Notes: generated from the sequence alone by a model not told the origin. DNA of 64,000 nt from Flavobacteriales bacterium (GCA_016721005.1 JADKJM010000007.1:24571-88570), one strand, 5' to 3'; positions 19,959-43,946 are shown, counted from the stretch's first letter. Program-made: numbers and translations.

Positions 19959-20091
19959 TACCGCAAAGGGCGCGAAGGACACAAAGGAGAAATGCCAGTG
20001 CCCCATGGAGTACCCAAATAGCGTCAGAAGTCGACCAACACATATGAACCCGAACGCCGCATTCTTCGTGCACTTTGTGCTCTTTGCGGTA
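19959..20091. repeat. Inverted-repeat (REP/MITE-like) element between mksE and mksB
   Basis: Arms TACCGCAAAG-GGCGCGAAG-GACACAAAG and CTTCGTGCA-CTTTGTGCT-CTTTGCGGTA with 9-bp internal periodicity. Confidence 0.75.
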
Positions 20092-20110
20092 TCCATCAGC
20101 CTTTGATCGC

Positions 20111-22834: not shown

Positions 22835-22855
22835 AACTCGAACTCATTCCATGAG

Positions 22856-22884
22856 AAGAACCCCGGCTTGGTCGGGGTTCTTTC
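22856..22884 (+). terminator. Rho-independent terminator after mksB
   Basis: AAGAACCCCGGC-ttg-GTCGGGGTTCTTTC. Confidence 0.75.
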
Positions 22885-22918
22885 GTTCCGGATCATTCTC
22901 CCGGTACCTTCCGTCGCG

Positions 22919-25900
22919 ATGCGTGATCTCCGGGGTTCCTTTTCTGTGATCGTATTCCTCGCGACCGCGATCGGAACAGCGCAGGACCTCCGCTTCCAAC
23001 ACCTCACCACCGACGATGGCCTAAGCGACAACGCCATCACGTGCGTGTACGAGGATCATGCGGGCTTCATCTGGGTGGGCACCGAGCATGGACTGAACCG
23101 ATACGATGGCAATGCAGTATGGCAGCCGCGCGATGGGACGTTGCGCGCGGAGTGGATCACCGGCATCCTCGAAGATGGCGCCGACGCGTTCTGGATCACC
23201 ACGCGCGAGCACGGACTGATACGCTATGACAAGCGCACCGAGGCGGTGAGGCGCTTTCGCAAAGCAGAGAACGACACGCACCGCCTGGCGAGCGAACAGC
23301 TCAACGGTCTCTATGAACTCAACGACACCACCATATTGCTCGCGTCGCGCGAAGTGAGCTTGATCTTCCTGGACAAGCGCAGCTTGGTATTCACGTACTG
23401 GGCCGATAGCACGAGCTTGGATCCGCTCCGCGCCGAGTCCGCTCCTCCGGCACATCATGGCTGGTGCCATGCCATCGTGCCGCTCGACGAGGATCGCCTG
23501 TGGTTGGGTTTCCTGAACTTCAACCAAAGCTGGGTCGTGGATCGCCACACACTGCGCACATCGACCCTGTTGATGGTGCAACGCGCAGGCTCGGAGACGC
23601 AGACCTGCGCGGCTCTCCAGAGCGGGATCCTCTACACCGGAGGCTGGCAGAACGGCTTGGATGCCATTCCTCTTGGACGCAACGCACCAGCGCATATCCA
23701 GGCATCTTCACCCTTGCAGGTGCGCGCCACGCCCGATGAGGTAGTGAGCATCGTGCCTTGGAGCAAGGGACGTTTGCTCATGTCCATCCGCCAGCACGGG
23801 CTACTCCTTTTCGATCCGGCCGCAGGATCCTTCACGCGCTTCGCGCATGCAACCAACGACTTCTCTTCCATTGCAAGCGATCAGGTCGGCTGCCTCTTTG
23901 TGGATCGGTCCGCCACGGTATGGGTAGGTACTTCGAACGGTCTTGATCGCTTCGTACCCGACGTATGGCGCATGCAGGTGCGATCGCTCTTCGGCAACAG
24001 CGATATCGATCATCAGGATGTCCACTTCCACGCGATCGAAGCACAACCGGATGGCGGTGCGCGCCTGTTCACTTCGGACGGGATCATCACAACCGATGCA
24101 CGAGGCAGCGCAGTACGGCACATGGCTGTGCGCGCGAACGGCATGGACCTTCAGCCCACGGTGATCGGACGCGACCATGATGGCGCCCTGCTTCTCGGCA
24201 CGGAATACGGGATCCTGCGCTATCACGACCTCAATGACCCGGACCCGCAGGAATTCAGCATCAACGATGGCGGCGGCCATGTCTATCGTCCCGGCAGCAT
24301 GTTCCAAGTGCGCGGCATCTCGCCGGACACGGTGGAAGGCCGTCCTGTGTTCGTGATCGGCACGCTCGGCTTCGGCGTGCATGTGGTGGATGCGGCCACC
24401 GCCCGAGTCCTCGGCTGGGGCATGCCCACATCAGCCAACGATGCGCAAGCCTTCAGCCTGGTGAACAGCATGGTGCGCGATGCAAGCGGAACTTACTGGT
24501 ACGGCACTTCGGGCGGGGTCCTTCGCTGGGATACGCACATGCCGATGATCCGGTTGACGTTGAAGAGCGCGGAGGCGAACGGCTCGATCGACGTGCCCAT
24601 GAAAGGAGAGGATGTCCGCCAATTGATCCTGTTGAACGACACCGTGTGGGGTGTTGCGCGTAACGGTACACTCTTCTCCATCACCAACGGTACGGTCGTC
24701 CGTCATGTGCCAACGGGCGGCTCGCGCAACACGATGCTCGGGCTCACCGCCGATCGGCGTGGAACGATCTGGATCGCCACTGAAGATGGGCTCCTCCGCT
24801 TCGATCCCCGCTCCGCTGTGTTCACGCACGTTCCGGTGAACGATGGTCATGCATTCCGAAAACTCACCCGCGCCATCGCCACCCTCACCGATGGACGTAT
24901 CGCCATCTGCGCGAACAATGCGGTGATCACGTTCGATCCGGATGCGTTCGATCAACTCCCTGAGTTGCCGAACGCGTACATCACGTCCATCCTTTCCGCT
25001 GGAAAGCCGGTGATGATCGAGAACGGATCCGCTGAACTATCGTACCGCGCCAGCGTGATCGACATCGCCATCAGCGCCCTCTCGCCCCAACAACCACAAC
25101 CGCTCAAATTCGACTACCGCCTGGATGGCGTGGAGACGGAATGGCGCACGATCACGGCGCGCGAAGCGATCCGGTACGCCGGTGTGCCGGTGGGGTCGCA
25201 TGATCTGCTGGTCCGTGTGCGCGATGCATATGGTCGCGCGGGATCCGTACAGCGCTTGCTCACGATCATCGTCATCGGACCCCTCTGGCAGCAGTGGTGG
25301 TTCTATGCCATCGCACTATTGCTGATCGCTGCGGGGTTGTATGCGCTGTACCGCTACCGCCTCGCGCAAGCGTTGAAATTGCAGGCCGTGCGCAACCGCA
25401 TCGCCAGCGACCTGCACGACGAAGTGGGCTCCTCGCTCAGCAGCATCACCATCGGCAGCCAGCTCGCTGCGAAACTCAGTAGCGCTGAGAACGAACAGGT
25501 GAAGCACCTGATGGCCCGTATCGGCGAAACGAGCAGTGAGAGTTTGCGCAGCATGAGCGACATCGTGTGGGCCATCGATCCGAAGAACGATCAGGGGAAT
25601 GCTCTGGTGAAGCGCATGCGCAGGATCGCGAACGAACTGCTGGAGAGCAAGGGCGTCGAGGTCTCGTTCAGCGTGACCGGTGGCGTGGAGGAATTGAAGT
25701 TGCCGATGAACGCGCGCAAGGACCTGCTGCTGATCTACAAGGAAGCCGTACACAACGCGAGCAAGTATGCCGAAGCACGGAGCGTGATGATCGATCTGTC
25801 CCGCGCGAACGGTTGGCTAACGATGCGCGTGAAGGACGATGGCAAGGGCTTCGACCCGGCGCTTCATCCTGATGGACATGGCTTGGGAAGCATGCAACGG

Positions 25901-25999
25901 CGCGGTGCGGCGCTCGGGACACGAGTCATCATCGAGAGTGCTGCGGGCGAAGGGACGCTCGTTTCCATCCGGGTGGACCTCACGAGAATTCGGGATTGA
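22919..25999 (+). CDS. Sensor histidine kinase with periplasmic beta-propeller/Y_Y_Y domains (HisKA_3 type)
   Basis: FQHLTTDDGLSDNAITCVYED..GFIWVGT..GLNRYDG; Y_Y_Y; TM; RNRIASDLHDEVGSSLSSI; KEAVHNASKYA; DDGKGF, GHGLGSM. Confidence 0.93.
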   Translation: MRDLRGSFSVIVFLATAIGTAQDLRFQHLTTDDGLSDNAITCVYEDHAGFIWVGTEHGLNRYDGNAVWQPRDGTLRAEWITGILEDGADAFWITTREHGLIRYDKRTEAVRRFRKAENDTHRLASEQLNGLYELNDTTILLASREVSLIFLDKRSLVFTYWADSTSLDPLRAESAPPAHHGWCHAIVPLDEDRLWLGFLNFNQSWVVDRHTLRTSTLLMVQRAGSETQTCAALQSGILYTGGWQNGLDAIPLGRNAPAHIQASSPLQVRATPDEVVSIVPWSKGRLLMSIRQHGLLLFDPAAGSFTRFAHATNDFSSIASDQVGCLFVDRSATVWVGTSNGLDRFVPDVWRMQVRSLFGNSDIDHQDVHFHAIEAQPDGGARLFTSDGIITTDARGSAVRHMAVRANGMDLQPTVIGRDHDGALLLGTEYGILRYHDLNDPDPQEFSINDGGGHVYRPGSMFQVRGISPDTVEGRPVFVIGTLGFGVHVVDAATARVLGWGMPTSANDAQAFSLVNSMVRDASGTYWYGTSGGVLRWDTHMPMIRLTLKSAEANGSIDVPMKGEDVRQLILLNDTVWGVARNGTLFSITNGTVVRHVPTGGSRNTMLGLTADRRGTIWIATEDGLLRFDPRSAVFTHVPVNDGHAFRKLTRAIATLTDGRIAICANNAVITFDPDAFDQLPELPNAYITSILSAGKPVMIENGSAELSYRASVIDIAISALSPQQPQPLKFDYRLDGVETEWRTITAREAIRYAGVPVGSHDLLVRVRDAYGRAGSVQRLLTIIVIGPLWQQWWFYAIALLLIAAGLYALYRYRLAQALKLQAVRNRIASDLHDEVGSSLSSITIGSQLAAKLSSAENEQVKHLMARIGETSSESLRSMSDIVWAIDPKNDQGNALVKRMRRIANELLESKGVEVSFSVTGGVEELKLPMNARKDLLLIYKEAVHNASKYAEARSVMIDLSRANGWLTMRVKDDGKGFDPALHPDGHGLGSMQRRGAALGTRVIIESAAGEGTLVSIRVDLTRIRD

Positions 26000-26044
26000 T
26001 GCACATGCGCGATCGCGGGAACTTCGGGCCAACGTCCGAAGCAC

Positions 26045-27577
26045 ATGAACAACCGATATCCCCTACTCTGCTTTGCCCTCCTTACCGTGGCCACGATCAC
26101 TGCGCAGCCAGGGACCCTCGACCCATCGTTCGGCACCAACGGCAAGGCGATCGCCAATGTGCCGGGCACGTATTGCAGCGGCCAAGCCATCGCCGAGCAA
26201 GCCGATGGCAAGCTCCTCGTGTGCGGGCAGACCCCTGGATCCACCTTGCTCGTGCGCTTCAATACCGACGGCAGCCTCGATGGCACCTTCGGCAGCAACG
26301 GCCTCGTGCTCACCGATGTTGATGTGAGCAACGACTACATCGGCAGCATCGCCGTGCAGCCGGACGGGAGGATCGTGGTGGGCGGCAACAAGTTCGATGC
26401 GCTGGCCAACGCCGATGTGATCGTGATGCGCTACCTGCCCGACGGCACGCTCGACGATTCGTTCAGCGGCGACGGCATTGCGGACTTCTCCATCGGCACG
26501 TGGGCCACGTATGCCACCGGGTTGGTCCTACAGCCCGATGGCAGGATCGTCATTTGCGGCGACCGCTATGTCGGTCCGGGATGGGAGTCCTTCCTCACGC
26601 GCTTCAATACGAACGGGAGCTGGGACAGCGGTTTCGGCACGGTGCAATTGGACATGGCGGCCACCAGCAGCGACAACCTGCACGACATCGCCCTGCAATC
26701 CGATGGGAAGATCCTGGTCTGCGGCACTTCGCTGGATGCATCGGACAACCATGTGGCGATCGCACGGTACAATGCTGACGGCACGATCGATACCGGCTTC
26801 GGGACCGGAGGCAAGCTGATGCTCAGTCCGGGAGGGTCCGGCGATGATCGGGCCAACAGCTTGCGCGTGCAGCCTGATGGGCGCATCCTGGTCACGGGCA
26901 TCTCCGGTGATGGCAACGACTTCGGCATCGGGGTGCTGCGGCTGATGCCCGATGGCACCAGCGACGCTTCCTTCGGCAGTGGGGGCTTCGCGCTCATCCC
27001 GTTCGGCGGGGACGATTGGACCCAGCCCTCGCTCGCCCTCCAGTCCGATGGGAGGATCGTGATCGGCGCCGACAACACGAGCGCCTCCACGCCCGACGTG
27101 AAGGTCATCCGGCTGAATGCGGACGGCACCCTCGACAGCGGATTCGGCACCAACGGCATCGGCACCTCGAACGCCACGTCCGGCAACAACGCCGAGTCGG
27201 CCGTGCGCACCTTGTTCCTGCACGATGGCGGTATCGTAGTGGCAGGGTACGCCGAAGCTTCGAACCCGTCCATCCAACTGGCCGTGTGGAAATTCCTGAG
27301 CGGGGTGAACGTGGGACTTGCCGAGCAAGCGCGCCAACCCGATCAGCTCGCCCTGGCACCCAACCCCGCACAGGACAGGTTGGTGATCCGTGGTGCGCAC
27401 ATCCAACGCGGAGGCAGCATAGCGGTACACGACCAGAGCGGCCGCCATCTTTCCGTGCCGACCGTGATCAACACCGACCACGCGCTGGTCGATGTCTCCG
27501 CGCTGGCACCCGGCAGCTACACGATCACAGTGCGCAACGCAGACGGCATCATCGCGCAGCGGTTCATCAAGGAATAA
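26045..27577 (+). CDS. T9SS type A cargo with delta-60 beta-propeller repeats
   Basis: Signal peptide; repeated G.LD.SFG..G and Q.DG.I.V.G; CTD LAPNPAQD...DVSALAPGSY...RFIKE. Confidence 0.88.
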   Translation: MNNRYPLLCFALLTVATITAQPGTLDPSFGTNGKAIANVPGTYCSGQAIAEQADGKLLVCGQTPGSTLLVRFNTDGSLDGTFGSNGLVLTDVDVSNDYIGSIAVQPDGRIVVGGNKFDALANADVIVMRYLPDGTLDDSFSGDGIADFSIGTWATYATGLVLQPDGRIVICGDRYVGPGWESFLTRFNTNGSWDSGFGTVQLDMAATSSDNLHDIALQSDGKILVCGTSLDASDNHVAIARYNADGTIDTGFGTGGKLMLSPGGSGDDRANSLRVQPDGRILVTGISGDGNDFGIGVLRLMPDGTSDASFGSGGFALIPFGGDDWTQPSLALQSDGRIVIGADNTSASTPDVKVIRLNADGTLDSGFGTNGIGTSNATSGNNAESAVRTLFLHDGGIVVAGYAEASNPSIQLAVWKFLSGVNVGLAEQARQPDQLALAPNPAQDRLVIRGAHIQRGGSIAVHDQSGRHLSVPTVINTDHALVDVSALAPGSYTITVRNADGIIAQRFIKE

Positions 27578-27668
27578 GGTCGGTGTTGCTTTCCATGGAT
27601 CATCCATCCGTGCCATTTGCTTGCACGGCGTTCAGGTCCTTCCTTCGAACTCGGGAACAATTGACTTC

Positions 27669-27907
27669 ATGAGCAACTCCCCCATCCGCGTCATCGCCTT
27701 CCACAACAAGGACATGGTGTGCGTGGAGGCACACCCGGACCTAAGCCAGCATCGGCGGCCTGGACGCGCAGCCGACTTGATCATGATGGACCGTGAAGCA
27801 TGCTACGGCATGGGCGGACCCTTGAACACGATGCTCGAGTTCAAGAGCGCACCGGCGCGATCACCTTCGCGAAGGTTGAGGTGTATCTCACGAGAATTCG
27901 GGATTGA
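27669..27907 (+). pseudogene. Collapsed remnant: response-regulator 5' end fused to histidine-kinase 3' end
   Basis: About 27560-27790 is a degraded copy of about 33960-34250 (MSNSPIRVIAF...); 27795-27907 is a degraded copy of the kinase 3' end, ending CTCACGAGAATTCGGGATTGA. Confidence 0.85.
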
Positions 27908-27949
27908 TGGGCACTGGCGGGCGAAGGATCTTGGTACCGTCAAGATCCC

Positions 27950-30900
27950 TTGCCGATGAACCCAGCCCTGCGCGTCCCTTATCTTCTTCTTTCCGCAGCG
28001 ATCTCCACCGGAGCGATCGCCCAGAACCCTGTGTTCCAATGGGCGGATGGCGTCCGGAATGTGGAGACACCGGGAACCATGGCCATCGTGAACGGCATTT
28101 CCGTTGCAGGCGACGGCACCGCGTTCATTGTGGGCAAGACCTTCGGTCCGCATACGATCGTGTCGGATACGCTCGTCGGCAGCACCTATTTGGCCCGGTA
28201 CGACCAACAGGGCGAATGCATGTGGGCGCGCACACCGGGCGGTAACGATGTGGCCGCAGCAAGCGGCAACATGGCTTATGTGGTGGGCTCGTTCAGCGGC
28301 ACGCTGCAATTCGGCGCCACCACGCTTTCAGCCAACGGGGTTGATGCCTACCTGGCGAAATATGATGCGGCGGGTTCGCTCCTTTGGGTGCATCAGATCG
28401 GTGGTGCAGGCCTCAACAATGCCTATTCCGTCGCGGTGGACGGACTGGGCATGGTGCATGTGGTCGGACATTTCCAAGGCAGTGCGACCTTCGGTGGCAC
28501 CACATTGATCGCTACGCACGACAGCACGGGCTACTTGGCCACCTACGATGCCAACGGTGTGGACCAATGGGCAGTGATCTGCGGCGGCTTGAACTTCTCG
28601 GCGAACTACATATCCCCGAAAATGGCCATCGACGCCGACGCTTCAGGGAACACCTTCGTGAGCGGTGTGTTCGATGATACCGGGACCTTCGGCACCACTA
28701 CGCTCGCTTCCGCCGATCTCGATGATATCTTCCTCGCCCGTTTCGACGCGGCAGGCGCATGCACTTGGGTGCGAAAGATGGGCGCCTATTCGGGCAACGA
28801 AGTCCATGGCGTGGCTGTGGCCCCTGCTGGCCATATCTACATCTATGGCGGTTTCTGGGGAGACGATGCCCAATTCTGCGGCCCCACACTTTTCAATTCC
28901 CATTTCGGCAATCTGGACATGTTCCTTGCGGAGTATGACGGCGCGGGTATTTGCCAATGGGCACAACACGTGGCACCGGGCTTCTTCAATGACTTTCCCG
29001 GCAACTTGGAAGTGGACGGTCCTGGCAATGCGTGGATCACGGGCTACTACTTCGGAACCACCGGACTGTTCGGTGCCCTGACATTGACCGGCGGTGGCGC
29101 GTTCGTGGCGCGCTATGATCCTGCTGGTAACGCCACACTTGCGGAAAGACTGTACACCGCCACAGATGGCATGATCGGCCTGGGCGCCGATGATGACCTG
29201 TTCATCGCAGGCAACATTGGCGGGAGCGCGGTGTTCGACATGGTCGCGGGAACGAACGTGTTCGCGAACTTCGGCAATGGGATGGGTTACATAGCGCACT
29301 ACGATGCGAGCCACTCTTACCAGTGGGTGCATCAGCTGGGCATGCACGGCGCAGCATACGACGCAGCATCCGCCATCGCGTTGGACAACAGCGGCAATGT
29401 GTACACCACGGGTAACTACAGCGGGTCCGCGATCTTCTGCAACGACACGCTGCATGCATGGCTCGCGGGCAGCAGCATCTTCATCAGCAAACGTGATGCG
29501 AATGGAAACTGCTTGTGGGAGCGGAGCATCGGTGACAGGGGTGCGTTCGGCAACACCACGCTCAACGGCGGAACCTCGATCGCCGTCGATGGCAACGCCA
29601 TCTATGTGGCGGGGAAGTTCGCGGACAGCGTGCGGTTCGGGAACACATCCTTGGTGAGCGCCGGAGGGACGGATCTTTTCCTCGCGCGGTACGATGACAA
29701 TGGCAACTGCATCTGGGCGAGGCGTGGCGGCGGAACGGGCAATGATGCGGGCGCCTCGGTGGGCGTGGATGGTAGTGGACACGTTCTCCTCGCCGGTTCC
29801 TACGCCGCCACCGCCAACATCGGGAATGAGGTCTTCACCAGCCTCGGTTATTCAGATGCGTTCCTGGCCCGCTACGATAGCAACGGGAATTACATCTGGG
29901 GCCGAACGATGGGCGGCAGCGGTTGGGACAATGCGGCGGATGTGGCCGTGGACGCTTCCGGGAACAGCTACGTGACCGGGCGTTTCACTACATCCGCGGC
30001 CTTCGGTGCACTTACCATTTCCGGCACAAGCGATGCGGGCATGTTCCTGGCGAAATACGATGCGATCGGAGATCCGCTCTGGGTGGTGGGCACGACCGGT
30101 GCCGGTTGGCAGGAAGGCACGTCGGTGGTGCAGAACTCATCAGGGAACATCTACGTGACCGGCTCATTCCAAGGAAGTGCGGGTTTCTGCACCACCACCC
30201 TTGAGAGCGATGCGTACTATCACGCGTACCTCTCATGCTATACACCCGATGGCGGTGAACTTTGGACCGAGCAATTCCAGGTCTCCGGTGAAAGTCACGG
30301 GTATGGTCTGGCGGCAAGGCCGGGCGGAAACATCGTGCTTACAGGCACCCTTTCCGGTACAGCCACGTTCGGCAGCACCACCCTGACGAGTGGAAGCTAT
30401 TCCGATGCCTTGATCGCCGCGTTCGAACCGGATGGCACCAGCCTTTGGGCCAGGGGCATGGGCGGCTCCGGAGAGTGGGATTACAGCATGGCGACCACCT
30501 CCGTGGCGGATGCCAACAATGTTTATCTGGTCGGGAGCTATGGTGGCCTCCTGTTCGATGCGAACACCCAAGGAGGCTCCATCACGTTCGATCCAGGTGA
30601 TCCACTTTCGACCATTCTCGCGCCGAACGGACTTGACGCTTTCGTCGCCAAGTTCAGTGTCGCGGAGACCACGGCGAACCCGGTGAACCCGACCCCGTGC
30701 GGTTCGCCGCTCGCAGTTCATGAGGCGAGCATCGAACAGCAGGTGATCCTTTCGCCCAACCCCGTCGTGAATTCCCTAACGCTTGCAGGCGAGTTGCCGT
30801 TCCTTCCCGGGTCGTCCATCATCGTGCGGGACATGACAGGGCGTGCGGTGAATGCGCCCTTCGTGATCAATGCGAACAAGGCGATGGTCGATGCATCAGC

Positions 30901-30976
30901 ACTCGTACCGGGCAGCTACATCGTGTCGGCACGAACATCGAACGGATCGATCGCCGAGCGCTTCATCAAGGAATGA
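27950..30976 (+). CDS. T9SS type A cargo with SBBP-type beta-propeller repeats
   Basis: Repeated D.SGN.YVTG.F, D.FLARYD..G...W; CTD LSPNPVVN...DASALVPGSY...RFIKE. Confidence 0.88.
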   Translation: MPMNPALRVPYLLLSAAISTGAIAQNPVFQWADGVRNVETPGTMAIVNGISVAGDGTAFIVGKTFGPHTIVSDTLVGSTYLARYDQQGECMWARTPGGNDVAAASGNMAYVVGSFSGTLQFGATTLSANGVDAYLAKYDAAGSLLWVHQIGGAGLNNAYSVAVDGLGMVHVVGHFQGSATFGGTTLIATHDSTGYLATYDANGVDQWAVICGGLNFSANYISPKMAIDADASGNTFVSGVFDDTGTFGTTTLASADLDDIFLARFDAAGACTWVRKMGAYSGNEVHGVAVAPAGHIYIYGGFWGDDAQFCGPTLFNSHFGNLDMFLAEYDGAGICQWAQHVAPGFFNDFPGNLEVDGPGNAWITGYYFGTTGLFGALTLTGGGAFVARYDPAGNATLAERLYTATDGMIGLGADDDLFIAGNIGGSAVFDMVAGTNVFANFGNGMGYIAHYDASHSYQWVHQLGMHGAAYDAASAIALDNSGNVYTTGNYSGSAIFCNDTLHAWLAGSSIFISKRDANGNCLWERSIGDRGAFGNTTLNGGTSIAVDGNAIYVAGKFADSVRFGNTSLVSAGGTDLFLARYDDNGNCIWARRGGGTGNDAGASVGVDGSGHVLLAGSYAATANIGNEVFTSLGYSDAFLARYDSNGNYIWGRTMGGSGWDNAADVAVDASGNSYVTGRFTTSAAFGALTISGTSDAGMFLAKYDAIGDPLWVVGTTGAGWQEGTSVVQNSSGNIYVTGSFQGSAGFCTTTLESDAYYHAYLSCYTPDGGELWTEQFQVSGESHGYGLAARPGGNIVLTGTLSGTATFGSTTLTSGSYSDALIAAFEPDGTSLWARGMGGSGEWDYSMATTSVADANNVYLVGSYGGLLFDANTQGGSITFDPGDPLSTILAPNGLDAFVAKFSVAETTANPVNPTPCGSPLAVHEASIEQQVILSPNPVVNSLTLAGELPFLPGSSIIVRDMTGRAVNAPFVINANKAMVDASALVPGSYIVSARTSNGSIAERFIKE

Positions 30977-30986
30977 ACGCCGCGCC

Positions 30987-33980
30987 ATGAGAATGTACAG
31001 AGCCTTCATCACCTCGTTGCTCGCGGCTACGAGCGCGATCGTAATGCAAGGGCAACAGCCCGTGTTCCAATGGGCGGAAGCGGTGAACAACGTCGCCTTC
31101 ATGTATTACTCCGGATGCACGGATGCGGAAGTGGCAGCGGATGGTGCCGTGTATGTCACCGGCCAAGCGAAGGACGCATGGGCGCACGGCTCCTTGATCA
31201 TCGAGAACGAAGTGGCGCGCAGCCCCTTCCTGGCCCGCTACGATGCGAGCGGGGACATGATCTGGGTGCGCCCCGGCGGCTGGGCACTGACCACCGTGGG
31301 CAGCAATGCGATCTATGTGACCGGTGATTTTCACGGCACGAGGGACTTCGGCGGCAGCACTTTCACAGCGGATAGCCTGGACGCCTTCCTGATGCGATAC
31401 GATGCGAACGGCAACGTGATCTGGGCGCGGCAGATGGGCGGCGGAGGAGGCGACAAGGGAATTTCCGTCGCCGTGGATGCCTTGGGACAGGTGCAGGTCG
31501 CCGGCATTTTCCAGGGTTCCGCAACGTTCGGCACCACAACCCTGATCGCCACGCACGATTCCACCGGCTTCCTCGCCACCTACGATGCCAGCGGCAATTT
31601 CATCCGGGCCATGATAGCAGGTGGCACCGACAACGTTGCGTACAACGTCGGTTACAACGTGGATCTGGCATGTGATGCGTCCGGTCACACCTATTGGTTC
31701 GGGATGTTCGATGGAACGGCATCATTCAACGGTACCAACCTCACCAGTTCAAGCGACAATGCAATGGCTCTGGCCCGCTTTGAAAGCAACGGCACCTGCA
31801 CATGGGCGACCCGGATGGGCGGAACCGCGAACATCCCTGCCGGCTTGGGGATCGCGGCCAACGGCAATGCGTATGTCTCTGGCACCTTCAGAGCCAGCGG
31901 CACCTTCGGTACGATCAGCATTCCCGATTCCTTCACTGCCGATGATGCATTCCTCGCGCTCTACGACCCGAACGGTGATCCGATCTGGGCACAGCGCATC
32001 GTCACCTCATCGTCCGCCGAACGCATGTACTCCATCACAGTGAACAGTGCCGGGAACGCCGTCGTCTCCGGTATTTCGGGCGGAACGAGCGCGACCGTTG
32101 GTGCGTCCACCATCACAGGTATTTCAGGCCAATTGACCTACGTGGCGGAGTTCGATGCAACAGGCGCCTTCCAATGGGCCGAACGGCTTTGCACGGCACG
32201 GCCGTTCATTGCCTTGGGTGCCATGGATGATCTCTACCTCTTCGGCAGCGAACTGTTCACTCCCGGATCCAACGGTACCATCTTCGACTTTGACACCGGC
32301 ATCGCGATCGGGGGGGCCGTGTCAGGGCGTACGGACGCCTTTCTCGCCCATTACGATGTTGCACATGACTTCCAATGGTTGCGTGTGATGGGTAGCACGC
32401 CCCCGGCCTACGACCAGGGTGCCGGCATTGTCTCGGATGCGAACGGCAACGTGTACACGGTCGGCAGATATACGGACTCCGCGATCCTGTGCGGGGATAC
32501 CTTGAAGGAATTCCCGGCCGTCAGTTCAGGCTTCCTTAGCAAGCGCGACGGCAGTGGCGCCTGCATCTGGACGCGCGAGTTCGGCACCAGTGGCAACAAC
32601 GTCGCACACGCGATCACGATCGATGGGAATGGAGATCTGATCATTGCAGGCGCGTTCTCTGATACGGTGACCTTGGGATCCGTACAACTGGTGAGCGACG
32701 GCGGCCGCGATCTTTTCGTAGCCAAGTACGACCCGAACGGCGTTTGCCTGTGGGCGAAGCGGGGGGGCGGCACGGCCAATGAAGATGCGACCTCGGTGGC
32801 CGTCAGTGCCAATGGTGATGTGAGCATCGCTGGATCCTACTTCAGCGCGACCACCATTGGAACGGCCACCTTCACGAGTGCGGGCGGCTTCGATATGTTC
32901 ATTGCGCACTACGATGCATCCGGCAACCTCGGCTGGGCGAAAAGCATGGGCGGTGCCGGATACGACCTCCTCGCCGGCCTGGCTCTGGACGCCACAGGCA
33001 ATGCCTATCTCTCCGGGTCCTTTACCGCATCGGCCACCTTCGATACGGAAACCATCATCGGCACCGGAAGTGCCGACATGTTCCTAGCGAAATATGATGC
33101 GACCGGAGACCCGGTGTGGGTGCAAAGCATGCCAGGCACGGGATCGAACACCGGTGCCGCCTTGGTGATCAATGATACCGGGAACCTCTATGTCACCGGC
33201 CATTACTACAACACCATCGATCTTGGGAGCGTCACCCTCACCGGGAGCCCCAGCAACGTCAGGGCCTTTCTTGCCTGTTACACCGATGCAGGCGTGAACC
33301 TGTGGGCGCAGGATATCCAGTCCACCGGAGGGACCGAAGGCTATGCGCTCGCCGCACGGCCGGGAGGCGATATCGTTCTCGCGGGTCAGTTGGTTGGTAC
33401 GGCGGTATTCGCAGGCACCACGCTCACGAGCACAAGCGGCTCTGGCGATGTCCTTCTTGCTGCATATAACGCCGCCGGACAGCCGCTGTGGGCCACGAAC
33501 ATGGGGGGCAACGGCACATGGGATCAGGCGGCGGCAGCGGGCGTCTGTGCAGACGCGGATCACGTCCATGCCACGGGCTACTTCGGTGGTTTGATCTACA
33601 ACTCGGACTACAACGGGGGCTCCATCACCTTTGTGCCGGGTGATCCCAGCACCACGCGCTACGCACCGAACAGCCTGGACGTGTTCGTGGTGAAGTACGC
33701 CATCGATGAGTCCGTGGGCTTGCACCACGTGCTCGTTTCCGCCCCATCGCTCATTCTCTCTCCCAACCCGGTGGATCACTTCTTCACTTTGAGCGGCGAT
33801 GATCTGGAAAGCGGCGCCACTCTCGCGGTGCGTGATATGACGGGCCGCGAAGTGCCCCTCCCCTTCACCATACAAACAAACAAGGCCATGGTCGATGCCT
33901 CTTCGCTTTCATCGGGCAGCTACTCGATCATCGTACGCACTTCTCGCAGCATGATCACGCAGCGCTTCATCAAAGAATAA
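30987..33980 (+). CDS. T9SS type A cargo with SBBP-type repeats (paralog of 27950-30976)
   Basis: Same architecture and collinear motifs (PVFQWA, ATHDSTG, LAARPGG, GGSITF.PGDP); CTD LSPNPVD...RFIKE. Confidence 0.88.
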   Translation: MRMYRAFITSLLAATSAIVMQGQQPVFQWAEAVNNVAFMYYSGCTDAEVAADGAVYVTGQAKDAWAHGSLIIENEVARSPFLARYDASGDMIWVRPGGWALTTVGSNAIYVTGDFHGTRDFGGSTFTADSLDAFLMRYDANGNVIWARQMGGGGGDKGISVAVDALGQVQVAGIFQGSATFGTTTLIATHDSTGFLATYDASGNFIRAMIAGGTDNVAYNVGYNVDLACDASGHTYWFGMFDGTASFNGTNLTSSSDNAMALARFESNGTCTWATRMGGTANIPAGLGIAANGNAYVSGTFRASGTFGTISIPDSFTADDAFLALYDPNGDPIWAQRIVTSSSAERMYSITVNSAGNAVVSGISGGTSATVGASTITGISGQLTYVAEFDATGAFQWAERLCTARPFIALGAMDDLYLFGSELFTPGSNGTIFDFDTGIAIGGAVSGRTDAFLAHYDVAHDFQWLRVMGSTPPAYDQGAGIVSDANGNVYTVGRYTDSAILCGDTLKEFPAVSSGFLSKRDGSGACIWTREFGTSGNNVAHAITIDGNGDLIIAGAFSDTVTLGSVQLVSDGGRDLFVAKYDPNGVCLWAKRGGGTANEDATSVAVSANGDVSIAGSYFSATTIGTATFTSAGGFDMFIAHYDASGNLGWAKSMGGAGYDLLAGLALDATGNAYLSGSFTASATFDTETIIGTGSADMFLAKYDATGDPVWVQSMPGTGSNTGAALVINDTGNLYVTGHYYNTIDLGSVTLTGSPSNVRAFLACYTDAGVNLWAQDIQSTGGTEGYALAARPGGDIVLAGQLVGTAVFAGTTLTSTSGSGDVLLAAYNAAGQPLWATNMGGNGTWDQAAAAGVCADADHVHATGYFGGLIYNSDYNGGSITFVPGDPSTTRYAPNSLDVFVVKYAIDESVGLHHVLVSAPSLILSPNPVDHFFTLSGDDLESGATLAVRDMTGREVPLPFTIQTNKAMVDASSLSSGSYSIIVRTSRSMITQRFIKE

Positions 33981-34071
33981 GGTCGGTGTTGCTTTCCATC
34001 GATCATCCATCCGTGCCATTTGCTTGCATCGCGATCAGGTCCTTCCTTCGAACTCGGGAACAAAAGACTTC

Positions 34072-34743
34072 ATGAGCAACTCCCCCATCCGCGTCATCGC
34101 CTTCGACGACAACAAGGACCTGCGCGACATGTTCCGCATGCTCGTGGACGCGCAGCCCGACATGGTGTGCGTGGCCGTACACCCGGACCTCTCGCAGATG
34201 ATGCGCGACCTCGACGCCGCGAAGCCCGATGTGATCGTGATGGACATCCAGATGCCGGGTCCCGGTTCGGAGACCGGGGTGACGGGCATTTGGGGTGTGC
34301 GTGCGATCAAGGCGCGTTGGCCCGATGCGCGCATTTTGATGCAGACCGTCTTCGAGGATGAGGAGAAGGTCTTCGACGCCATCCGCGCCGGAGCCAGCGG
34401 CTACATCCTCAAGACCTCCAGCGGCGATGAAATGATGAAAGCCATCCGCGATGTGCATGCGGGCGGCTCGGCCATGACGCCTGCCATCGCATTCAAGGTG
34501 CTCGAACATTTTCGCGTGAGTGCGCCGCCAAGCGAAGCACGACCGATGGACCCCGGTTTGAGCGAGCGCGAAAAGAGCGTACTGACGTTGTTGGTGAAAG
34601 GCCGCAGCTACAAGATGATCGCGGACGAGCTCGGCATCAGCTACCACACCGTGGACAGCCACATCCGGCGCATCTACGAAAAGCTGCATGTGGCCAGCGG
34701 CACCGAGGCGGTGAGCAAGGCGCTGCGGGACCGGCTGGTGTGA
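34072..34743 (+). CDS. NarL/LuxR-family response regulator
   Basis: FDDN, VMDIQMPG, GASGYILK, LSEREKSVL...G.SYKMIADELGISYHTVDSHIRRIYEKLHV. Confidence 0.95.
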   Translation: MSNSPIRVIAFDDNKDLRDMFRMLVDAQPDMVCVAVHPDLSQMMRDLDAAKPDVIVMDIQMPGPGSETGVTGIWGVRAIKARWPDARILMQTVFEDEEKVFDAIRAGASGYILKTSSGDEMMKAIRDVHAGGSAMTPAIAFKVLEHFRVSAPPSEARPMDPGLSEREKSVLTLLVKGRSYKMIADELGISYHTVDSHIRRIYEKLHVASGTEAVSKALRDRLV

Positions 34744-34771
34744 TCCCGCTCGCTCACCGTGTGGCACAACC

Positions 34772-35398
34772 TCACGCCGAAGCCCTACCCAACGCCGGAT
34801 CGCTCTTCGCCCCTTCCCCGGCAGCACCCACGGCGCTCACGAGGAACCAATACGGCTTGAACGGCCCCAAGCCCTCCACCAGAAAGCGCACTTTTCCGGT
34901 CACGGTGAGCAAGGTCAACTTCGCGGCCGGGTCTGCGGGATCCTGGTCGGTGGAATACAGCCGGTAGAAATCCGCGCCATGCACCCCTTTCCAGAGCACG
35001 TCCACCTCGCCGGTGATCCCGGTCATGCGCGCGTACCGGATGGTCGGAATGCCCACCGGACCCACCGGCTCCGGGAATTTGGCCAGCGGATAGCCACTGC
35101 TCTCCAGAATGGTGAGGTCGCCGTTGCCCTGCACGCGCACGTAATCGGCCTGTGTGCGCAACATGTTTCGGCCCTGTTTGGCCAGGTCGTCGCGCAAGAG
35201 GCGGTCGTGGCGCGCACCGTTGGTGGCCACTTGGATCGCGGTCTCCAGATCATCCGCCAAGGTGGTCATGGTGGCCAACGGGATCGGGGGTGCGGGAAAG
35301 CTCGCATTCGCCATGAGGTGGGCGATCACATTGCGCAACAGCGCGAGCAGGTCGATGTTGCGGAGGCGGGAAAGGGCCAGTTTGATATTCGCACGCAT
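34772..35398 (-). CDS. Cytoplasmic protein with helical N-terminus and C-terminal fibronectin type III domain
   Basis: FPAPPIPL, SSGYPL, then W...GA..Y...Y...GL...KPYWF.VSAVGAAGEG..SD FN3 pattern; no signal peptide. Confidence 0.8.
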   Translation of the reverse strand: MRANIKLALSRLRNIDLLALLRNVIAHLMANASFPAPPIPLATMTTLADDLETAIQVATNGARHDRLLRDDLAKQGRNMLRTQADYVRVQGNGDLTILESSGYPLAKFPEPVGPVGIPTIRYARMTGITGEVDVLWKGVHGADFYRLYSTDQDPADPAAKLTLLTVTGKVRFLVEGLGPFKPYWFLVSAVGAAGEGAKSDPALGRASA

Positions 35399-35575
35399 GG
35401 CAAGGGGCTTTTGATGGACCGGAGCCGACCGGGGGATGGTTATGGCACCTGAACGCCGCCGTGTATCCCTTGGTACATGGCCTTTTCCGGTATGCGGAAA
35501 CGCATGGAATATGCCCGCACGGCCAAGCGGGGCGTATGCGGAACAGAATAGTTCATGCGGCATCGCATATCGGGC

Positions 35576-35918
35576 CAAGTAGACCATCTTGGTGGGTCAA
35601 GTACCCCGACCCGATGGACCAAGTACCCCGACCTGATACACCAAGTACCCCGACTTGATGAGCCAAGTAGCCCGACTTGATGGGCCAAGTACCCCGACCC
35701 GATGGGCCAAGTACCCCGACTTGATGGGCCAAGTACCCCGACTTGATGAGCCAAGTAGCCCGACTTGATGGGCCAAGTACCCCGACCCGATGGGCCAAGT
35801 ACCCCGACCCGATGGGCCAAGTACCCCGACTTGATGGGCCAAGTACCCCGACTTGATGGGCCAAGTACCCCGACCTGATACACCAAGTACCCCGACTTGA
35901 TGAGCCAAGTACCCCGAC
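35576..35918. repeat. 22-bp tandem repeat array: 15 clear units (35598-35918) plus one degenerate unit at 35576
   Basis: Consensus CAAGTACCCCGACTTGATGGGC; CAA starts at 35598, 35620, 35642 ... 35906 at exact 22-bp steps. Confidence 0.98.
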
Positions 35919-35923
35919 CCACT

Positions 35924-36208
35924 TCACTCCGACCTCTCCTGTCGCGGGGGCGGGGGCGGTGGCGGTGTATCGAATGTGATGGTGATCCGGCCGGGGTCAT
36001 TGTCCCCGATCATCGTCTCCAACGGGATGCCGAGTACTTCGCAGAGCTTCACCATCTCGGAAAAGCGGGGCTCCACTTCATCGTGCTCAATGTAGCTGAT
36101 GGTGCTCTGGCTCAGTCCCACGCGGTCGCCGGTGTACTCTTGCGTCCAACCCAATGCCACGCGAACAAGCTCCATGCGCTTGCCGCGGGTAAGGGTTCGG
36201 GGTGCCAT
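35924..36208 (-). CDS. XRE-family helix-turn-helix regulator
   Basis: R..LGWTQE..G.RVGLSQSTISYIE.....P......KLCEVLGI; poly-Pro tail. Confidence 0.88.
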   Translation of the reverse strand: MAPRTLTRGKRMELVRVALGWTQEYTGDRVGLSQSTISYIEHDEVEPRFSEMVKLCEVLGIPLETMIGDNDPGRITITFDTPPPPPPPRQERSE

Positions 36209-36414
36209 GGCGGCCGGTGAATAAGGAATGGAACAACGCCATTCCCAGTGATAATGCAGAAAAGCGGCGTTTAGTATGTTTCCGGAGCACCTTTCGTCGG
36301 GTAGGGACGACCGGGACTTGTGGATCCACCACCCCGGTCGCCAATTTTGTTCCCCTCGGAATGCGAAGTGCCACCCCGAGCGCGTTCATCACACCCCCCT
36401 TCCGCTTCGATCAC

Positions 36415-38309: not shown

Positions 38310-39587
38310 ATGCCAAAAGCAATAAGTCTTTTTGCCGGCGCTGGAGGATGCTCCCTCGGTTTCAAGCAAGCCAACTATGACATCGTCTTCGCCACTGACT
38401 TCGACAAGGCGGCGATGCAGACATATGCACTGAACTTGTCTGGAGCCAGCATCGCATGCAAAGACATCTGCGAAATTGACTTCCAAGAATTGATGGTAGC
38501 ACTGAAACTCAAGGCCGGGGAACTGGACGTGCTGATCGGTGGTCCACCGTGCCAAGGCTTCAGCACAGCCGGGCCAAGGTTTTGGGATGACCCAAGGAAT
38601 CACCTATTGAAACAATACGTGCGGGCCATCGAAGTCGTCAAGCCGAAGTGGCTCATGATGGAAAATGTCGAAGGGCTCCTCACAACCAAAGGCGGGGAAT
38701 ACGTTGCTGAAGTTGTAAAGGCATTTGTACGTCTCGGCTACCGTGTGCGCATCGAGAAAGTATATGCGCACGAGTATGGTGTTCCTCAGCGTCGGAAACG
38801 GGTGATCATCCTCGGGAATCGGCTTGGCAAAGACTTCACCTTCCCCACCGCTACTGTTCCATCTCACGGACGGATCTTCCGGAGGGGCGGGATCACTTTG
38901 GAGCAAGCCTTTCACGGCCTCCCGCACCCCGGCCATGTAAACCAGCCAGTTCCGTACGACGCCGATATGGAGGGAGAGTGGGCCGCATTCTTGGCGAGCG
39001 ACTCAGGACTTGTCACAGATCACTTCACACCCGAGGTGGAACCCTTGCAGGAACAACGCATTGCGGCTTTGGGCCCCGGTCAGACTATGAAGGATCTACC
39101 TGAACAGCTTCAGCACCCCAGCTTTCAGAAGCGAGCGAATAGACGAGTAATGGATGGCACACCATCCGAAAAGCGTGGCGGATCTCCTTCCGGTTTGAAG
39201 CGACTGCATTACGATGAGCCAAGTCTCACGATCACAGGTGCTGCGACCAGAGAGTTCATCCATCCCATTGAGAACCGCACACTGACCATCCGCGAAGCAG
39301 CACGCGCACAAACATTTCCGGATCACTTCACATTCATTGGAAGTCGATCCGATCGTATCCAGCAGATCGGGAATGCGATCCCACCGTTACTGGCCCGGGT
39401 ATTCGCTGAGCATATCGCCGAGCAGGGATTCCAACGCACATCCCATGAAGGGGAAGGCAGGTTCCTCGGATTCAAGTTGACGAAGTCGCAAGGTCTCAGT
39501 CCGGCATTGGAACGCACCTCGGGCTTGTTGCGCTCCCTGCTTACAACATCACATCAAGAACAACTATATTTTGAGGATGCCGGTTAG
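38310..39587 (+). CDS. C5-cytosine DNA methyltransferase, M.ApaLI-like
   Basis: SLFAGAGG (motif I), GGPPCQGFS (IV), ENVEG (VI), QRRKRVI (VIII), TIREAARAQTFPD, QIGNAIPP; RRVMDGTPSEKRGG recalled from M.ApaLI. Confidence 0.93.
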   Translation: MPKAISLFAGAGGCSLGFKQANYDIVFATDFDKAAMQTYALNLSGASIACKDICEIDFQELMVALKLKAGELDVLIGGPPCQGFSTAGPRFWDDPRNHLLKQYVRAIEVVKPKWLMMENVEGLLTTKGGEYVAEVVKAFVRLGYRVRIEKVYAHEYGVPQRRKRVIILGNRLGKDFTFPTATVPSHGRIFRRGGITLEQAFHGLPHPGHVNQPVPYDADMEGEWAAFLASDSGLVTDHFTPEVEPLQEQRIAALGPGQTMKDLPEQLQHPSFQKRANRRVMDGTPSEKRGGSPSGLKRLHYDEPSLTITGAATREFIHPIENRTLTIREAARAQTFPDHFTFIGSRSDRIQQIGNAIPPLLARVFAEHIAEQGFQRTSHEGEGRFLGFKLTKSQGLSPALERTSGLLRSLLTTSHQEQLYFEDAG

Positions 39588-40611
39588 CGTCACCGTGAAG
39601 ACACTTTTCAATAAGGCTCGTTCACTGGGCACGGGGCGCTTGGAAGTGAGGCTGAGCGGATCGGAATTGTATGGCCTTCTCCTGCTGATCTGCCGCGATC
39701 TCTCCTGGCAGCCGGAGCATATTGGATTGCCTAAGCCTCGCGAGGCCATACCAAAGCAGACCTACTATTCGGTCCCGCCGATCTGGTTCCTGAGCCATAG
39801 CAACGCACCGGATCCCGCAGAGCTTCAGAAGTCGATCGAAACAGCGATCGCCCTTGAGACCGACTTCGGGATGTATTTCTCGAACCTGTGCTCGCTGCAC
39901 AAACGGAGACTCAAATTCCAGCGGATCCTCAGCACGCAGCCGAAACCGACCATGGACCAGGTTGGTACACGTGGGCTGTTGGAGTATGGCACCTATACGA
40001 ACCAATTCCTCTTCAACTGGCTGGTCTGGCGTAAGTGGATCTTCGATCTGGACAACAGATCCGGCCAAGAGACGGGTTACTTATTCGAGCCGGTGCTTAC
40101 ACGTTGCCTCGGCGGTGAAGCTATCGATGCCAATTCGTCTCCAGTCAAGCGCATCGGAGAAAATGGCGAACCCAAGAAGGAAGGCAGGCAGATCGATTGT
40201 TATGTCGAAGACGAGAAGCTGGCCTATGAGTTCAAGATCCGGTTGACCATCGCGGCAAGCGGACAAGGCCGCTGGGACGAAGAGTTATCCTTCCCGGGAG
40301 AATGTGTTGCGGCGGGTCTTCGTCCGGTGCTCATTGTACTGGACCCAACTACTTCGAACCGCTTTGAGCAGTTGAGGGACCTCTTCTTGAGTCTTGGCGG
40401 CTTGGTGTTCGTGGGTGAAGCAGCTTGGAGCCATATTGAGGAACGTGCAGGCCGTACAATGGCCCGCTTCGTTGAGAATTACATCAAGCCGGCTCTCGAT
40501 GCGGCGAGCGAATTCGACACCGCACAGCTAGCGCCGATCTCTATGAGTTGGTTGGATGGATCGGTGGTTATTCGTATTGGAGACAAGGAACACAAGATCG
40601 AACGCGAATGA
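39571..40611 (+). CDS. Type II restriction endonuclease, ApaLI-like (predicted GTGCAC)
   Basis: WRKWIFDLDNRSGQETGYLFEP, GRQIDC, AYEFKIRLTIAASGQGRW.EELSF recalled from R.ApaLI; overlaps the MTase stop. Confidence 0.8.
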   Translation: MRMPVSVTVKTLFNKARSLGTGRLEVRLSGSELYGLLLLICRDLSWQPEHIGLPKPREAIPKQTYYSVPPIWFLSHSNAPDPAELQKSIETAIALETDFGMYFSNLCSLHKRRLKFQRILSTQPKPTMDQVGTRGLLEYGTYTNQFLFNWLVWRKWIFDLDNRSGQETGYLFEPVLTRCLGGEAIDANSSPVKRIGENGEPKKEGRQIDCYVEDEKLAYEFKIRLTIAASGQGRWDEELSFPGECVAAGLRPVLIVLDPTTSNRFEQLRDLFLSLGGLVFVGEAAWSHIEERAGRTMARFVENYIKPALDAASEFDTAQLAPISMSWLDGSVVIRIGDKEHKIERE

Positions 40612-43682: not shown

Positions 43683-43946
43683 CTGCGACCCTGCCGTACG
43701 GCAGGTCGGAACGCGATCGCTTGATGTTGCTATATGCTGTGACCCCTTCGGGGTCCAAACGACCCGCAGGTACTGACCCCGGAGGGGTCACAGCCTGTAG
43801 AAAACGATGACACGGATCGATCGACTTGATGTTGCTATATGCTGTGACCCCTTCGGGGTCCATACGACCCGCAGGTACTGACCCCGGAGGGGTCACAGCC
43901 TGTAGAAAATGATGACACGGAACGATCGACCCTGAAGGGGTCGCAG
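43683..43946. repeat. REP cluster (six GACCC-type palindromes; 105-bp direct duplication)
   Basis: TGTGACCCCTTCGGGGTC / GACCCCGGAGGGGTCACA inverted pairs repeated at 43720 and 43825; outer CTGCGACCC...GGGGTCGCAG. Confidence 0.9.

Follow-up and report, generated by a model that had tools for sequence, protein, structure and literature searches.

The R6K gamma origin carries seven 22-bp iterons, and the iterons of RK2, P1 and F are 17-22 bp long. Centromere-like repeats bound by small dimeric proteins are exemplified by R1 parC/ParR, the pSM19035 omega heptads and TubR/tubC, repeat hairpins make up the sponge RNAs of the CsrB/RsmZ type, and the Haemophilus hmw genes carry 7-bp repeats upstream, as contingency-locus promoter VNTRs. 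The array analysed here lies in a 64-kb stretch of Flavobacteriales DNA (the window, meaning the whole stretch) and shares some properties with each of these systems. Like plasmid and phage iterons, it consists of ~22-bp tandem direct repeats phased at two helical turns, with a conserved core, a variable spacer and a sequence that varies by element. Unlike iterons, which come in 3-9 copies, such arrays hold 10-30 copies, are chromosomal and are linked to a non-enzymatic FN3-type gene, and they lack a Rep gene, an AT-rich unwinding element and a replicon context (Rep families were sought in Pfam, PHROGs, NCBIfam and the related loci, and none was found). In centromere-like arrays, as here, many short repeats stand beside the gene of a small DNA-binding protein, forming a continuous lattice for cooperative dimers along one face; our array differs in that no partition NTPase is present, the XRE protein appears to read other sites, and there are arrays without an XRE gene.

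With ToxI/ToxN, CptIN and TenpIN the array shares a length that is kept while the sequence varies, a co-directional small gene and defence-gene neighbours, but an endoribonuclease fold and a terminator are both missing, and the unit length, the copy number and the structured gap of 240 nt are different. CsrB/RsmZ-type sponges resemble it in having ~16-20 serial short hairpin modules with a recurrent loop motif (here AUGG, in 18 of 39 arrays), but our arrays are near-identical tandem units with fast turnover, the strand of the motif is inconsistent and Rfam gives no match. Like hmw-type VNTRs, finally, the repeats vary in copy number upstream of a promoter and differ between relatives, but the unit is far longer, the 21-22-bp register is family-wide and the array stands upstream of the core promoter. 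Of the defining features tested for iterons, centromeres, type III toxin-antitoxin (TA) systems, CRISPR and Rfam families, at least one is lacking here in each case.

The locus is one member of a conserved module that has not been described before, in which an FN3-type gene with a structured leader is preceded by an operator region, a 21/22-bp array and, optionally, an XRE gene. Searches of its parts against Rfam, Pfam and defence-system libraries gave no entry apart from generic FN3 and HTH ones, and no description of the array element was found in the literature. In the window, the parts are as follows:

34772-35398, minus strand: gene for a 208-aa protein (start MRANIKL), with homologues and a structure model of pLDDT 91.5
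35399-35490, minus strand: leader that precedes the 208-aa gene (window variant of a pseudoknot leader)
35491-35568, minus strand: operator/promoter-like stretch, marked by half-site counts, helix-3 co-variation and a breakpoint
35576-35918, no strand assigned: tandem 22-bp array of 16 units
35924-36208, minus strand: gene for a 94-aa XRE/Cro-C1-type HTH protein (Pfam HTH_3, E = 2.4e-13)

The array in the window and its setting

The array occupies most of a 525-bp gap that separates two minus-strand genes. TRF reported a single array at 35572-35918, which it read both with a period of 22 (15.8 copies, 87% matches, score 498) and with a period of 88 (3.9 copies, 91% matches, score 557). When units of 22 bp are cut from 35576, all 16 start with CAAGTA; read in the direction of the flanking genes, the unit is CAAGTCGGGGTACTTGGCCCAT, in which a near-invariant block, GTCGGGGTACTTGG, is joined to a varying portion, GNNNAT plus CRR. 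The unit closest to the 208-aa gene (35576-35597) is degenerate and reads CAAGTAGA, while at the far end the last unit adjoins the HTH stop codon, which lies 6 nt from the array.

A first, sequence-only reading had described this array as a 22-bp repeat built on the inverted repeat CAAGT-N6-ACTTG with a few variants, and the description holds, as there are 16 in-register units and eight perfect dyads. Searched across the 64-kb window, the exact CAAGT-N6-ACTTG pattern occurs eight times, always inside the array, where 0.03 occurrences are expected; the right arm becomes ACCCG in five units and ACCTG in two, and the CAAGTAGC variant accounts for two units. ACTTG-N6-CAAGT is present as a second dyad, so that half-site orientation flips every 11 bp (5+6+5+6). 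Higher-order duplications had been proposed as well, with units 3-5 recurring as 7-9 at an 88-bp step and units 2-3 as 13-14. With counting from 35576, units 4-6 come back as units 8-10 after an 88-bp step, and units 3-4 as units 14-15, which is the same pattern if unit 1 is placed at 35598. A best arm of at least 5 is reached by 15% of shuffled window units (P = 0.15); what far exceeds chance for the composition of the window unit is the array, not the 5-bp dyad.

The surrounding DNA is Bacteroidota chromosomal, with genes for GldL, PorP/SprF, TopA, a MiaB-like protein, ClpX and T9SS-tailed proteins. All relatives found were Flavobacteriales MAGs or contigs from wastewater, sludge and sediment. 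Near-identical DNA was sought in plasmids and phages and none was found, the only hit being a 92-bp chance match to a plasmid; exact repeat patterns are absent from genome, viral and metagenome collections, and the window's own proteins had no match in the contig index.

Downstream of the array, the 208-aa protein is modelled (pLDDT 91.5) as an N-terminal three-helix bundle followed by a C-terminal FN3 domain. A fold search returned generic FN3 matches alone, with no structural match to the N-terminal helical domain at E<0.001, and the protein had no match in PHROGs, PADLOC or NCBIfam. The family defined by the N-terminal domain comprises 4261 clusters at 50% identity, nearly all members being ~205 aa long. 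From the loci compared below, this gene can be taken as the conserved partner of the array.

On the other side, the HTH protein ends with an 'ITITF' strand and then a proline-rich tail. An equivalent HTH gene is found in about two thirds of the related loci; a single-protein database search with the window's own HTH protein returned the query alone and no close homologue. An (S/P)ITITF/I beta-strand motif with a proline-rich tail, outside the HTH_3 domain, ends many of the array-linked XRE proteins (those considered being from the window, L011, L012, L040, L054, L019 and L026). Three unknown genes, the gene of a Dcm-type methylase and an unknown ORF are found beyond the HTH gene. This C5 cytosine methyltransferase gene (38310-39587, plus strand; Pfam DNA_methylase, E = 2.5e-67) is overlapped by the ORF, of 346 aa (39571-40611, plus strand), which has only a faint ApaLI-like match; the two are probably a type II restriction-modification (R-M) pair, and GC falls to 0.55 around them.

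Register, position and turnover in related loci

Homologues of the 208-aa protein were traced to 48 loci with enough upstream DNA, mostly in Flavobacteriales MAGs and metagenome contigs. In the first three related loci, the corresponding gap contains a tandem array whose period is 44, 44/88 or 66. Across all 48, a strong upstream array is present in 34, with a base period of 22 in 29, of 21 in four and ambiguous in one; a further 13 show weak or degenerate periodicity and all of these choose 22 or 21 among lags 15-30, leaving a single locus (L008) without array periodicity. In ~47 of the 48 loci, 22 or 21 comes out as the best period, even where the units are only ~50% alike, and super-periods of 44, 66 or 88 bp occur, many arrays alternating two or three unit types. 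Complete arrays are 178-623 bp long (median 336) and end a median of 240 nt from the ATG (IQR 223-272), just upstream of the region with ACTATTC and the palindromes described below. The sequences of the units are unrelated from locus to locus, and the 208-aa gene products across array-bearing loci are only 36-50% identical. A 21-bp array, with CCATGG/CCATTGG cores, is also carried by an AT-rich, distant member of the family (E = 1.7e-18 against the N-terminal profile). Numerous gene-bearing contigs begin ~220 nt upstream of the homologue of the 208-aa gene, and a collapsed repeat would cause such breaks.

The period of about two helical turns, which the sequence-only reading had picked out, is the sole feature conserved across orthologous arrays (22 or 21 in 47 of 48). 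Its dyad fared less evenly: loss of the dyad from orthologues, which had been named as evidence against a role, is seen in part. Dyads are enriched overall (mean best arm 5.15 vs ~4.1 in shuffles), but individually they reach significance in no more than 8 of 39 arrays, and in several no dyad is seen. An array that changes fast, keeps a fixed 21-22-bp period and lies upstream of the same gene in ~47 of 48 loci is very probably functional. The window's array is a single instance of this element, for which no earlier description was found.

At L076 (8409-8800), ~18 units form a degenerate, non-homogenised array in which the units are only ~50% alike, yet a CATAY..RTATG palindrome is kept every 22 bp; this array maps uniquely, as does the degenerate array of L025, and is therefore useful for transcript mapping.

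Expansion by unequal exchange, and a VNTR-like behaviour, had also been predicted and are borne out in close relatives; for the window's own array, the DNA contigs were fragmented and of low depth. L012 and L037 share the flanks of the array and have 11 and 9 double units, respectively, the L037 array being nearly fully homogenised. In L029 and L067, the HTH gene and the downstream genes are 93-94% identical and the arrays have been rebuilt, one being homogeneous while the other alternates two unit types that differ at ~10 of 22 positions. Unit sequence and copy number turn over fast by in-register unequal exchange, and the register of 21-22 bp is kept. Compared with L012 (2945-3494), L037 has lost most of the FN3-type gene and the end of the leader by a deletion at ~3003; it keeps the HTH gene and its highly homogenised array despite this loss.

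The syntenic orthologue of the window locus (L038) is 92.7% identical over 33336-35509 and has the same response regulator and T9SS-cargo gene (a conserved neighbouring response regulator was sought among the related loci and found in this syntenic strain alone). Upstream of 35509 it is unrelated to the window and carries a divergent gene, and this junction is identical in two sequencing runs (X2 and X5). Because L038 is colinear only to 35509, the array and the sequence beyond it represent a strain indel polymorphism, and the gene can exist without the array; it is found without one in L008 and L038. Read from this alignment, the array and the HTH gene would be part of a strain-specific insertion or deletion (35510 to ~40600), to which the neighbouring unknown genes and the Dcm methylase gene probably belong too.

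Operator-like sites and a structured leader

In the related loci, palindromes of 14-16 bp are found between array and gene, together with a conserved motif, ACTATTC, that stands ~150-200 nt ahead of the ATG. The window has this motif at 35546-35552 and a palindrome, ATGCG-N4-CGCAT, at 35555-35568; the stretch 35491-35568 also bears CCGCATA/TGCGG half-sites and the 35509 breakpoint relative to L038. As read from counts, the type of helix 3 in the HTH protein pairs with the half-sites, QG.VSK going with TATTCC/GGAATA and QS[TR].S with GCATA/CGCAT, and these helix-3-linked half-sites are missing from most arrays. GCAT-type pentamers in the window number 11 at 35491-35568 and 0 in the array.

Closer to the gene, a structured leader spans ~110 to 5 nt before the ATG of the FN3-type gene. 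RNAalifold predicted no pairs on a MAFFT alignment of the leaders, and the stems S1-S3 were located afterwards, sequence by sequence. A covarying pseudoknot leader is present in 15+ related loci (including L009, L012, L013, L019, L029, L044, L046-L048, L050, L054, L057 and L067), its window variant lying at 35399-35460. Stem S1 is GCCGTTG..CAACGGC and stem S2 is GGACC..GGTCC, covarying to GGATC..GATCC, while the S3 hairpin has a stem that differs nearly everywhere with its complementarity kept (TGGTAC/GTACCG, GGCTC/GAGCC, TCGCTCC/GGAGCGG and others). A pseudoknot results, as the S3 loop, ACCGGRTCC, provides the 3' half of S2. The window's leader carries GCGTTCAG and CCGG-tcggct-CCGG. No Rfam match was obtained for the leader, which is a candidate for a new cis-regulatory RNA. 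A search for a terminator-like site at 35399-35575 found none.

Possible roles of the array

The reading that we prefer, tentatively, is that the array works at the level of DNA, as a lattice of sites with two-fold symmetry that are spaced two helical turns apart and stand upstream of the gene's promoter. Short two-fold-symmetric sites would be repeated each two helical turns, and the window's CAAGT/ACTTG half-sites, alternating in orientation every 11 bp, would all face the same side of the helix. Placed immediately before the promoter/operator region, such a lattice would set or buffer expression of the 205-aa (helical bundle plus FN3) gene. One possibility is that it recruits a dimeric DNA-binding factor, other than the product of the adjacent XRE gene, in many copies; the other is that it imposes a defined shape on the upstream DNA, which would include insulating it from read-through transcription of the XRE gene. 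We infer that the array acts as DNA, is bound and controls the downstream gene.

Symmetry and the absence of strandedness both bear on this. Inverted repeats with arms of at least 4 occur in 11, 15, 16, 17 and 21 arrays at spacers of 0, 2, 4, 6 and 8, and in 5, 4, 8 and 7 arrays at spacers of 1, 3, 5 and 7 (null 5.5 +- 2.1), so that enrichment is found at even spacers only. The palindromic tetranucleotides CATG, GATC and TGCA are present in 17, 13 and 12 of 39 units, a three-fold enrichment over the ~5 expected. Since a perfect DNA palindrome has an even length, the two biases together point to two-fold symmetry of the DNA. A common core, sATGGks/CCATGG, emerges when either strand is allowed (information content 6.63 vs 5.62 +- 0.09 in shuffles); within arrays, it is as variable as the rest of the unit (0.086 vs 0.088). 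Over 39 arrays there is no consistent strand asymmetry, either in composition (G>C in 19 vs 17, T>A in 21 vs 15) or in stop codons (37 vs 40), and the register of 21-22 bp is held while stems and loops vary widely. Several points speak against a role as DNA, among them the variability of the common core just given and the RNA-library contigs and gene-strand folding described below. The product of the FN3 gene, the only conserved protein, has no recognisable DNA-binding fold; the arms of the units differ among loci, which makes a conserved sequence-specific binder hard to picture; conservation of the period is possibly in part inheritance, because unequal exchange preserves register; and in L008 and L038 the gene works with no array. 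Should the register be under selection, the locus would offer a clean natural test case for the control of a promoter by many weak symmetric sites in helical phase. The alternative would be a new partnership between a repeat RNA and a protein.

In the main rival, possible but less probable in our judgement, the array acts as RNA. It would lie at the 3' end of the XRE mRNA and/or in a long 5' UTR of the downstream gene, or be an ncRNA of its own, and would fold into serial 22-nt mini-hairpins. Such hairpins might stabilise or attenuate the transcript, or bind a protein many times over in the manner of a sponge, RNP scaffold or autoregulatory platform. The gene order fits, in that the XRE gene, the array and the 208-aa gene are always co-directional and the array begins 6-350 nt past the XRE stop. 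On the gene strand of the window, CAAGU, CAGGU and CGGGU can each pair with ACUUG through G.U, the T/C variants being all G.U; the loop CGGGGU is near-invariant and the linker variable, and the predicted fold of that strand has an MFE of -160 kcal/mol (z -2.4 vs shuffles), compared with -96 (z +0.2) for the other strand. Among loci, and between A and B units, arms change and stay complementary (in L046, CAAGT..ACTTG vs CGGTT..AACTG), and hairpin loops containing AUGG are seen in 11 arrays on the sense and 7 on the antisense strand, where ~2.6 and 1.9 are expected. Contigs from RNA-type libraries also touch the arrays: one spans from the HTH gene into the array at L018, where a metatranscriptome has two contigs inside the array, and at L025 each of three RNA libraries has one contig in the array or intergenic region, one of the three covering the downstream gene and none the HTH gene. 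These contigs are low-depth assemblies that carry no strand, and they may reflect DNA carry-over.

Further evidence runs against transcription into hairpins. The composition of 39 arrays is free of strand bias, and an early advantage of the sense strand (15 of 19) was not upheld. The wobble pairs of L039, the closest full relative, are on the strand opposite to those of the window, and the AUGG-loop hairpin of the window's clade is on the antisense strand. The dyad is significant in few units, as given above, and even-only spacers with palindromic centres have no rationale in an RNA. Rfam 15 gave no match at E<=10 over 34700-36400 and none that is relevant in seven related loci, and the array units show no excess complementarity to the leader or CDS of their own locus. 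For the last reason, we also rejected the idea that the units act as antisense guides to their own leader or CDS. Two other indications were set aside: a G+T bias of the sense strand, present in the first 19 arrays, disappeared with 39, and a count of G.U vs A.C mismatches (144 to 75) is not relied on, being heterogeneous and drawn from stems picked to maximise pairing.

A bolder proposal, which we regard as rather unlikely, is that the array and the 205-aa protein form an unrecognised two-part system, widespread in Bacteroidota, in which the protein has the lattice, either the DNA itself or its transcript, for a physical partner. Such a system could be, for example, a nucleoprotein or RNP assembly whose expression is controlled by the XRE protein and the pseudoknotted leader, and its frequent placement among R-M, TA and IS genes would suggest a role in conflict with mobile elements.

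It is quite improbable that the array has no function and is a selfish or neutral minisatellite, of single origin upstream of the gene family, with a period that was inherited and not selected. Fast turnover with homogenised units would be expected of such a repeat, as would degenerate arrays, a common core that is not protected within arrays, and a sequence that is dispensable in L008 and L038. Against this, arrays are present in 47 of 48 loci and in the distant AT-rich member, upstream of genes whose products have diverged to the extent given above, and this implies very long retention in genomes that delete useless DNA. Their position relative to the ATG is constant, the period never leaves 21-22 bp, and the biases in dyad, spacer parity and tetranucleotides are non-random. 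Intergenic tandem repeats of bacteria are usually dismissed as VNTRs; here the array marks a recurrent module of a large unannotated protein family in uncultured Flavobacteriales.

Same-face operator sites of graded affinity were one of two roles offered by the sequence-only reading; here they would belong to the adjacent XRE-type HTH protein, which would coat one face of the DNA. We consider this a little less probable still. The HTH gene directly adjoins the array in ~2/3 of loci, the units often contain a dyad, the spacing equals two helical turns and, by a rough tally, homogeneous arrays are commoner in loci with the HTH gene, which have ~23 strong and 4 weak arrays, compared with 7 strong and 8 weak ones where it is absent. 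However, L039, L061, L070, L024, L028 and L062 have clear arrays but lack an HTH gene within 2.5 kb, and the type of helix 3 follows the proximal palindromes and not the array units, the half-sites of the window being 11 there and 0 in the array. Like helices go with unlike units: the window and L011 have the same helix 3 (QSTIS) and unrelated units, and, conversely, the window and L046 have unit features in common (CCATCAAGTCG, ACTTGG) and a different helix 3. Arrays that lack an HTH gene and the co-variation of helix 3 with the proximal palindromes argue together that the array is probably not the operator set of the neighbouring HTH protein.

Two further readings are very unlikely, to much the same degree. 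In one, the units would be iterons, or a centromere-like site, left by an integrated plasmid, phage or island, and would have served as a replication origin or partition site. Helix-phased direct repeats of 22 bp do resemble iterons such as those of the R6K gamma origin, and the array and the region past 35509, the side on which the Dcm methylase gene lies, are missing from a related strain. But no Rep, ParA/ParM/TubZ, integrase or relaxase gene stands beside the array, in the window or in related loci, GC stays at ~59% (0.59-0.62) with no AT-rich dip or unwinding region, and the conserved partner is an FN3-type gene in ordinary chromosomal contexts.

In the other, array and gene would be a type III TA-like pair, the array being the RNA antitoxin and the downstream protein the toxin. 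A direct-repeat array immediately upstream of a small co-directional protein gene has this look, and R-M, PIN, HEPN, RadC and IS genes are common neighbours. The protein is nevertheless a helical bundle with an FN3 domain, not a nuclease-like fold, and has no similarity to ToxN/AbiQ; no terminator-like site separates array and gene, which are parted instead by a gap of ~240 nt with a conserved leader; the arrays have 16-30 units of 22 nt, whereas known families have few units of ~34-45 nt; and in L008 and L038 the gene is found without an array.

A CRISPR array is dismissed by contiguous units without spacers and by the lack of cas genes among the neighbours, and a coding repeat by a period that is not a multiple of 3 and by stop-free units numbering 12 vs 15 (sense/antisense). 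Nor do the palindromes of the arrays look like targets of neighbouring R-M systems, since in flanking DNA they are not avoided (83 observed vs 54 expected); in the window, GTAC and GGCC are as frequent as expected.

The window holds a second tandem repeat, at 43714-43930, of 2.1 copies of 105 bp that are 96% identical. Each copy contains two strong hairpins, GTGACCCC-TTCG-GGGGTC and GACCCC-GGAG-GGGGTC, and the repeat lies between genes for a DUF4139 protein and a thioredoxin-like protein. The stretch 20075-33980 is a run of ORFs, four of them very large (~920-1040 aa) and one of 510 aa; the ORF at 30870-33980, the sole one of the run that was scanned, has a T9SS C-terminal sorting domain as well as SBBP beta-propeller repeats. 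In L001 and L076, too, the module has T9SS-tailed proteins as neighbours.
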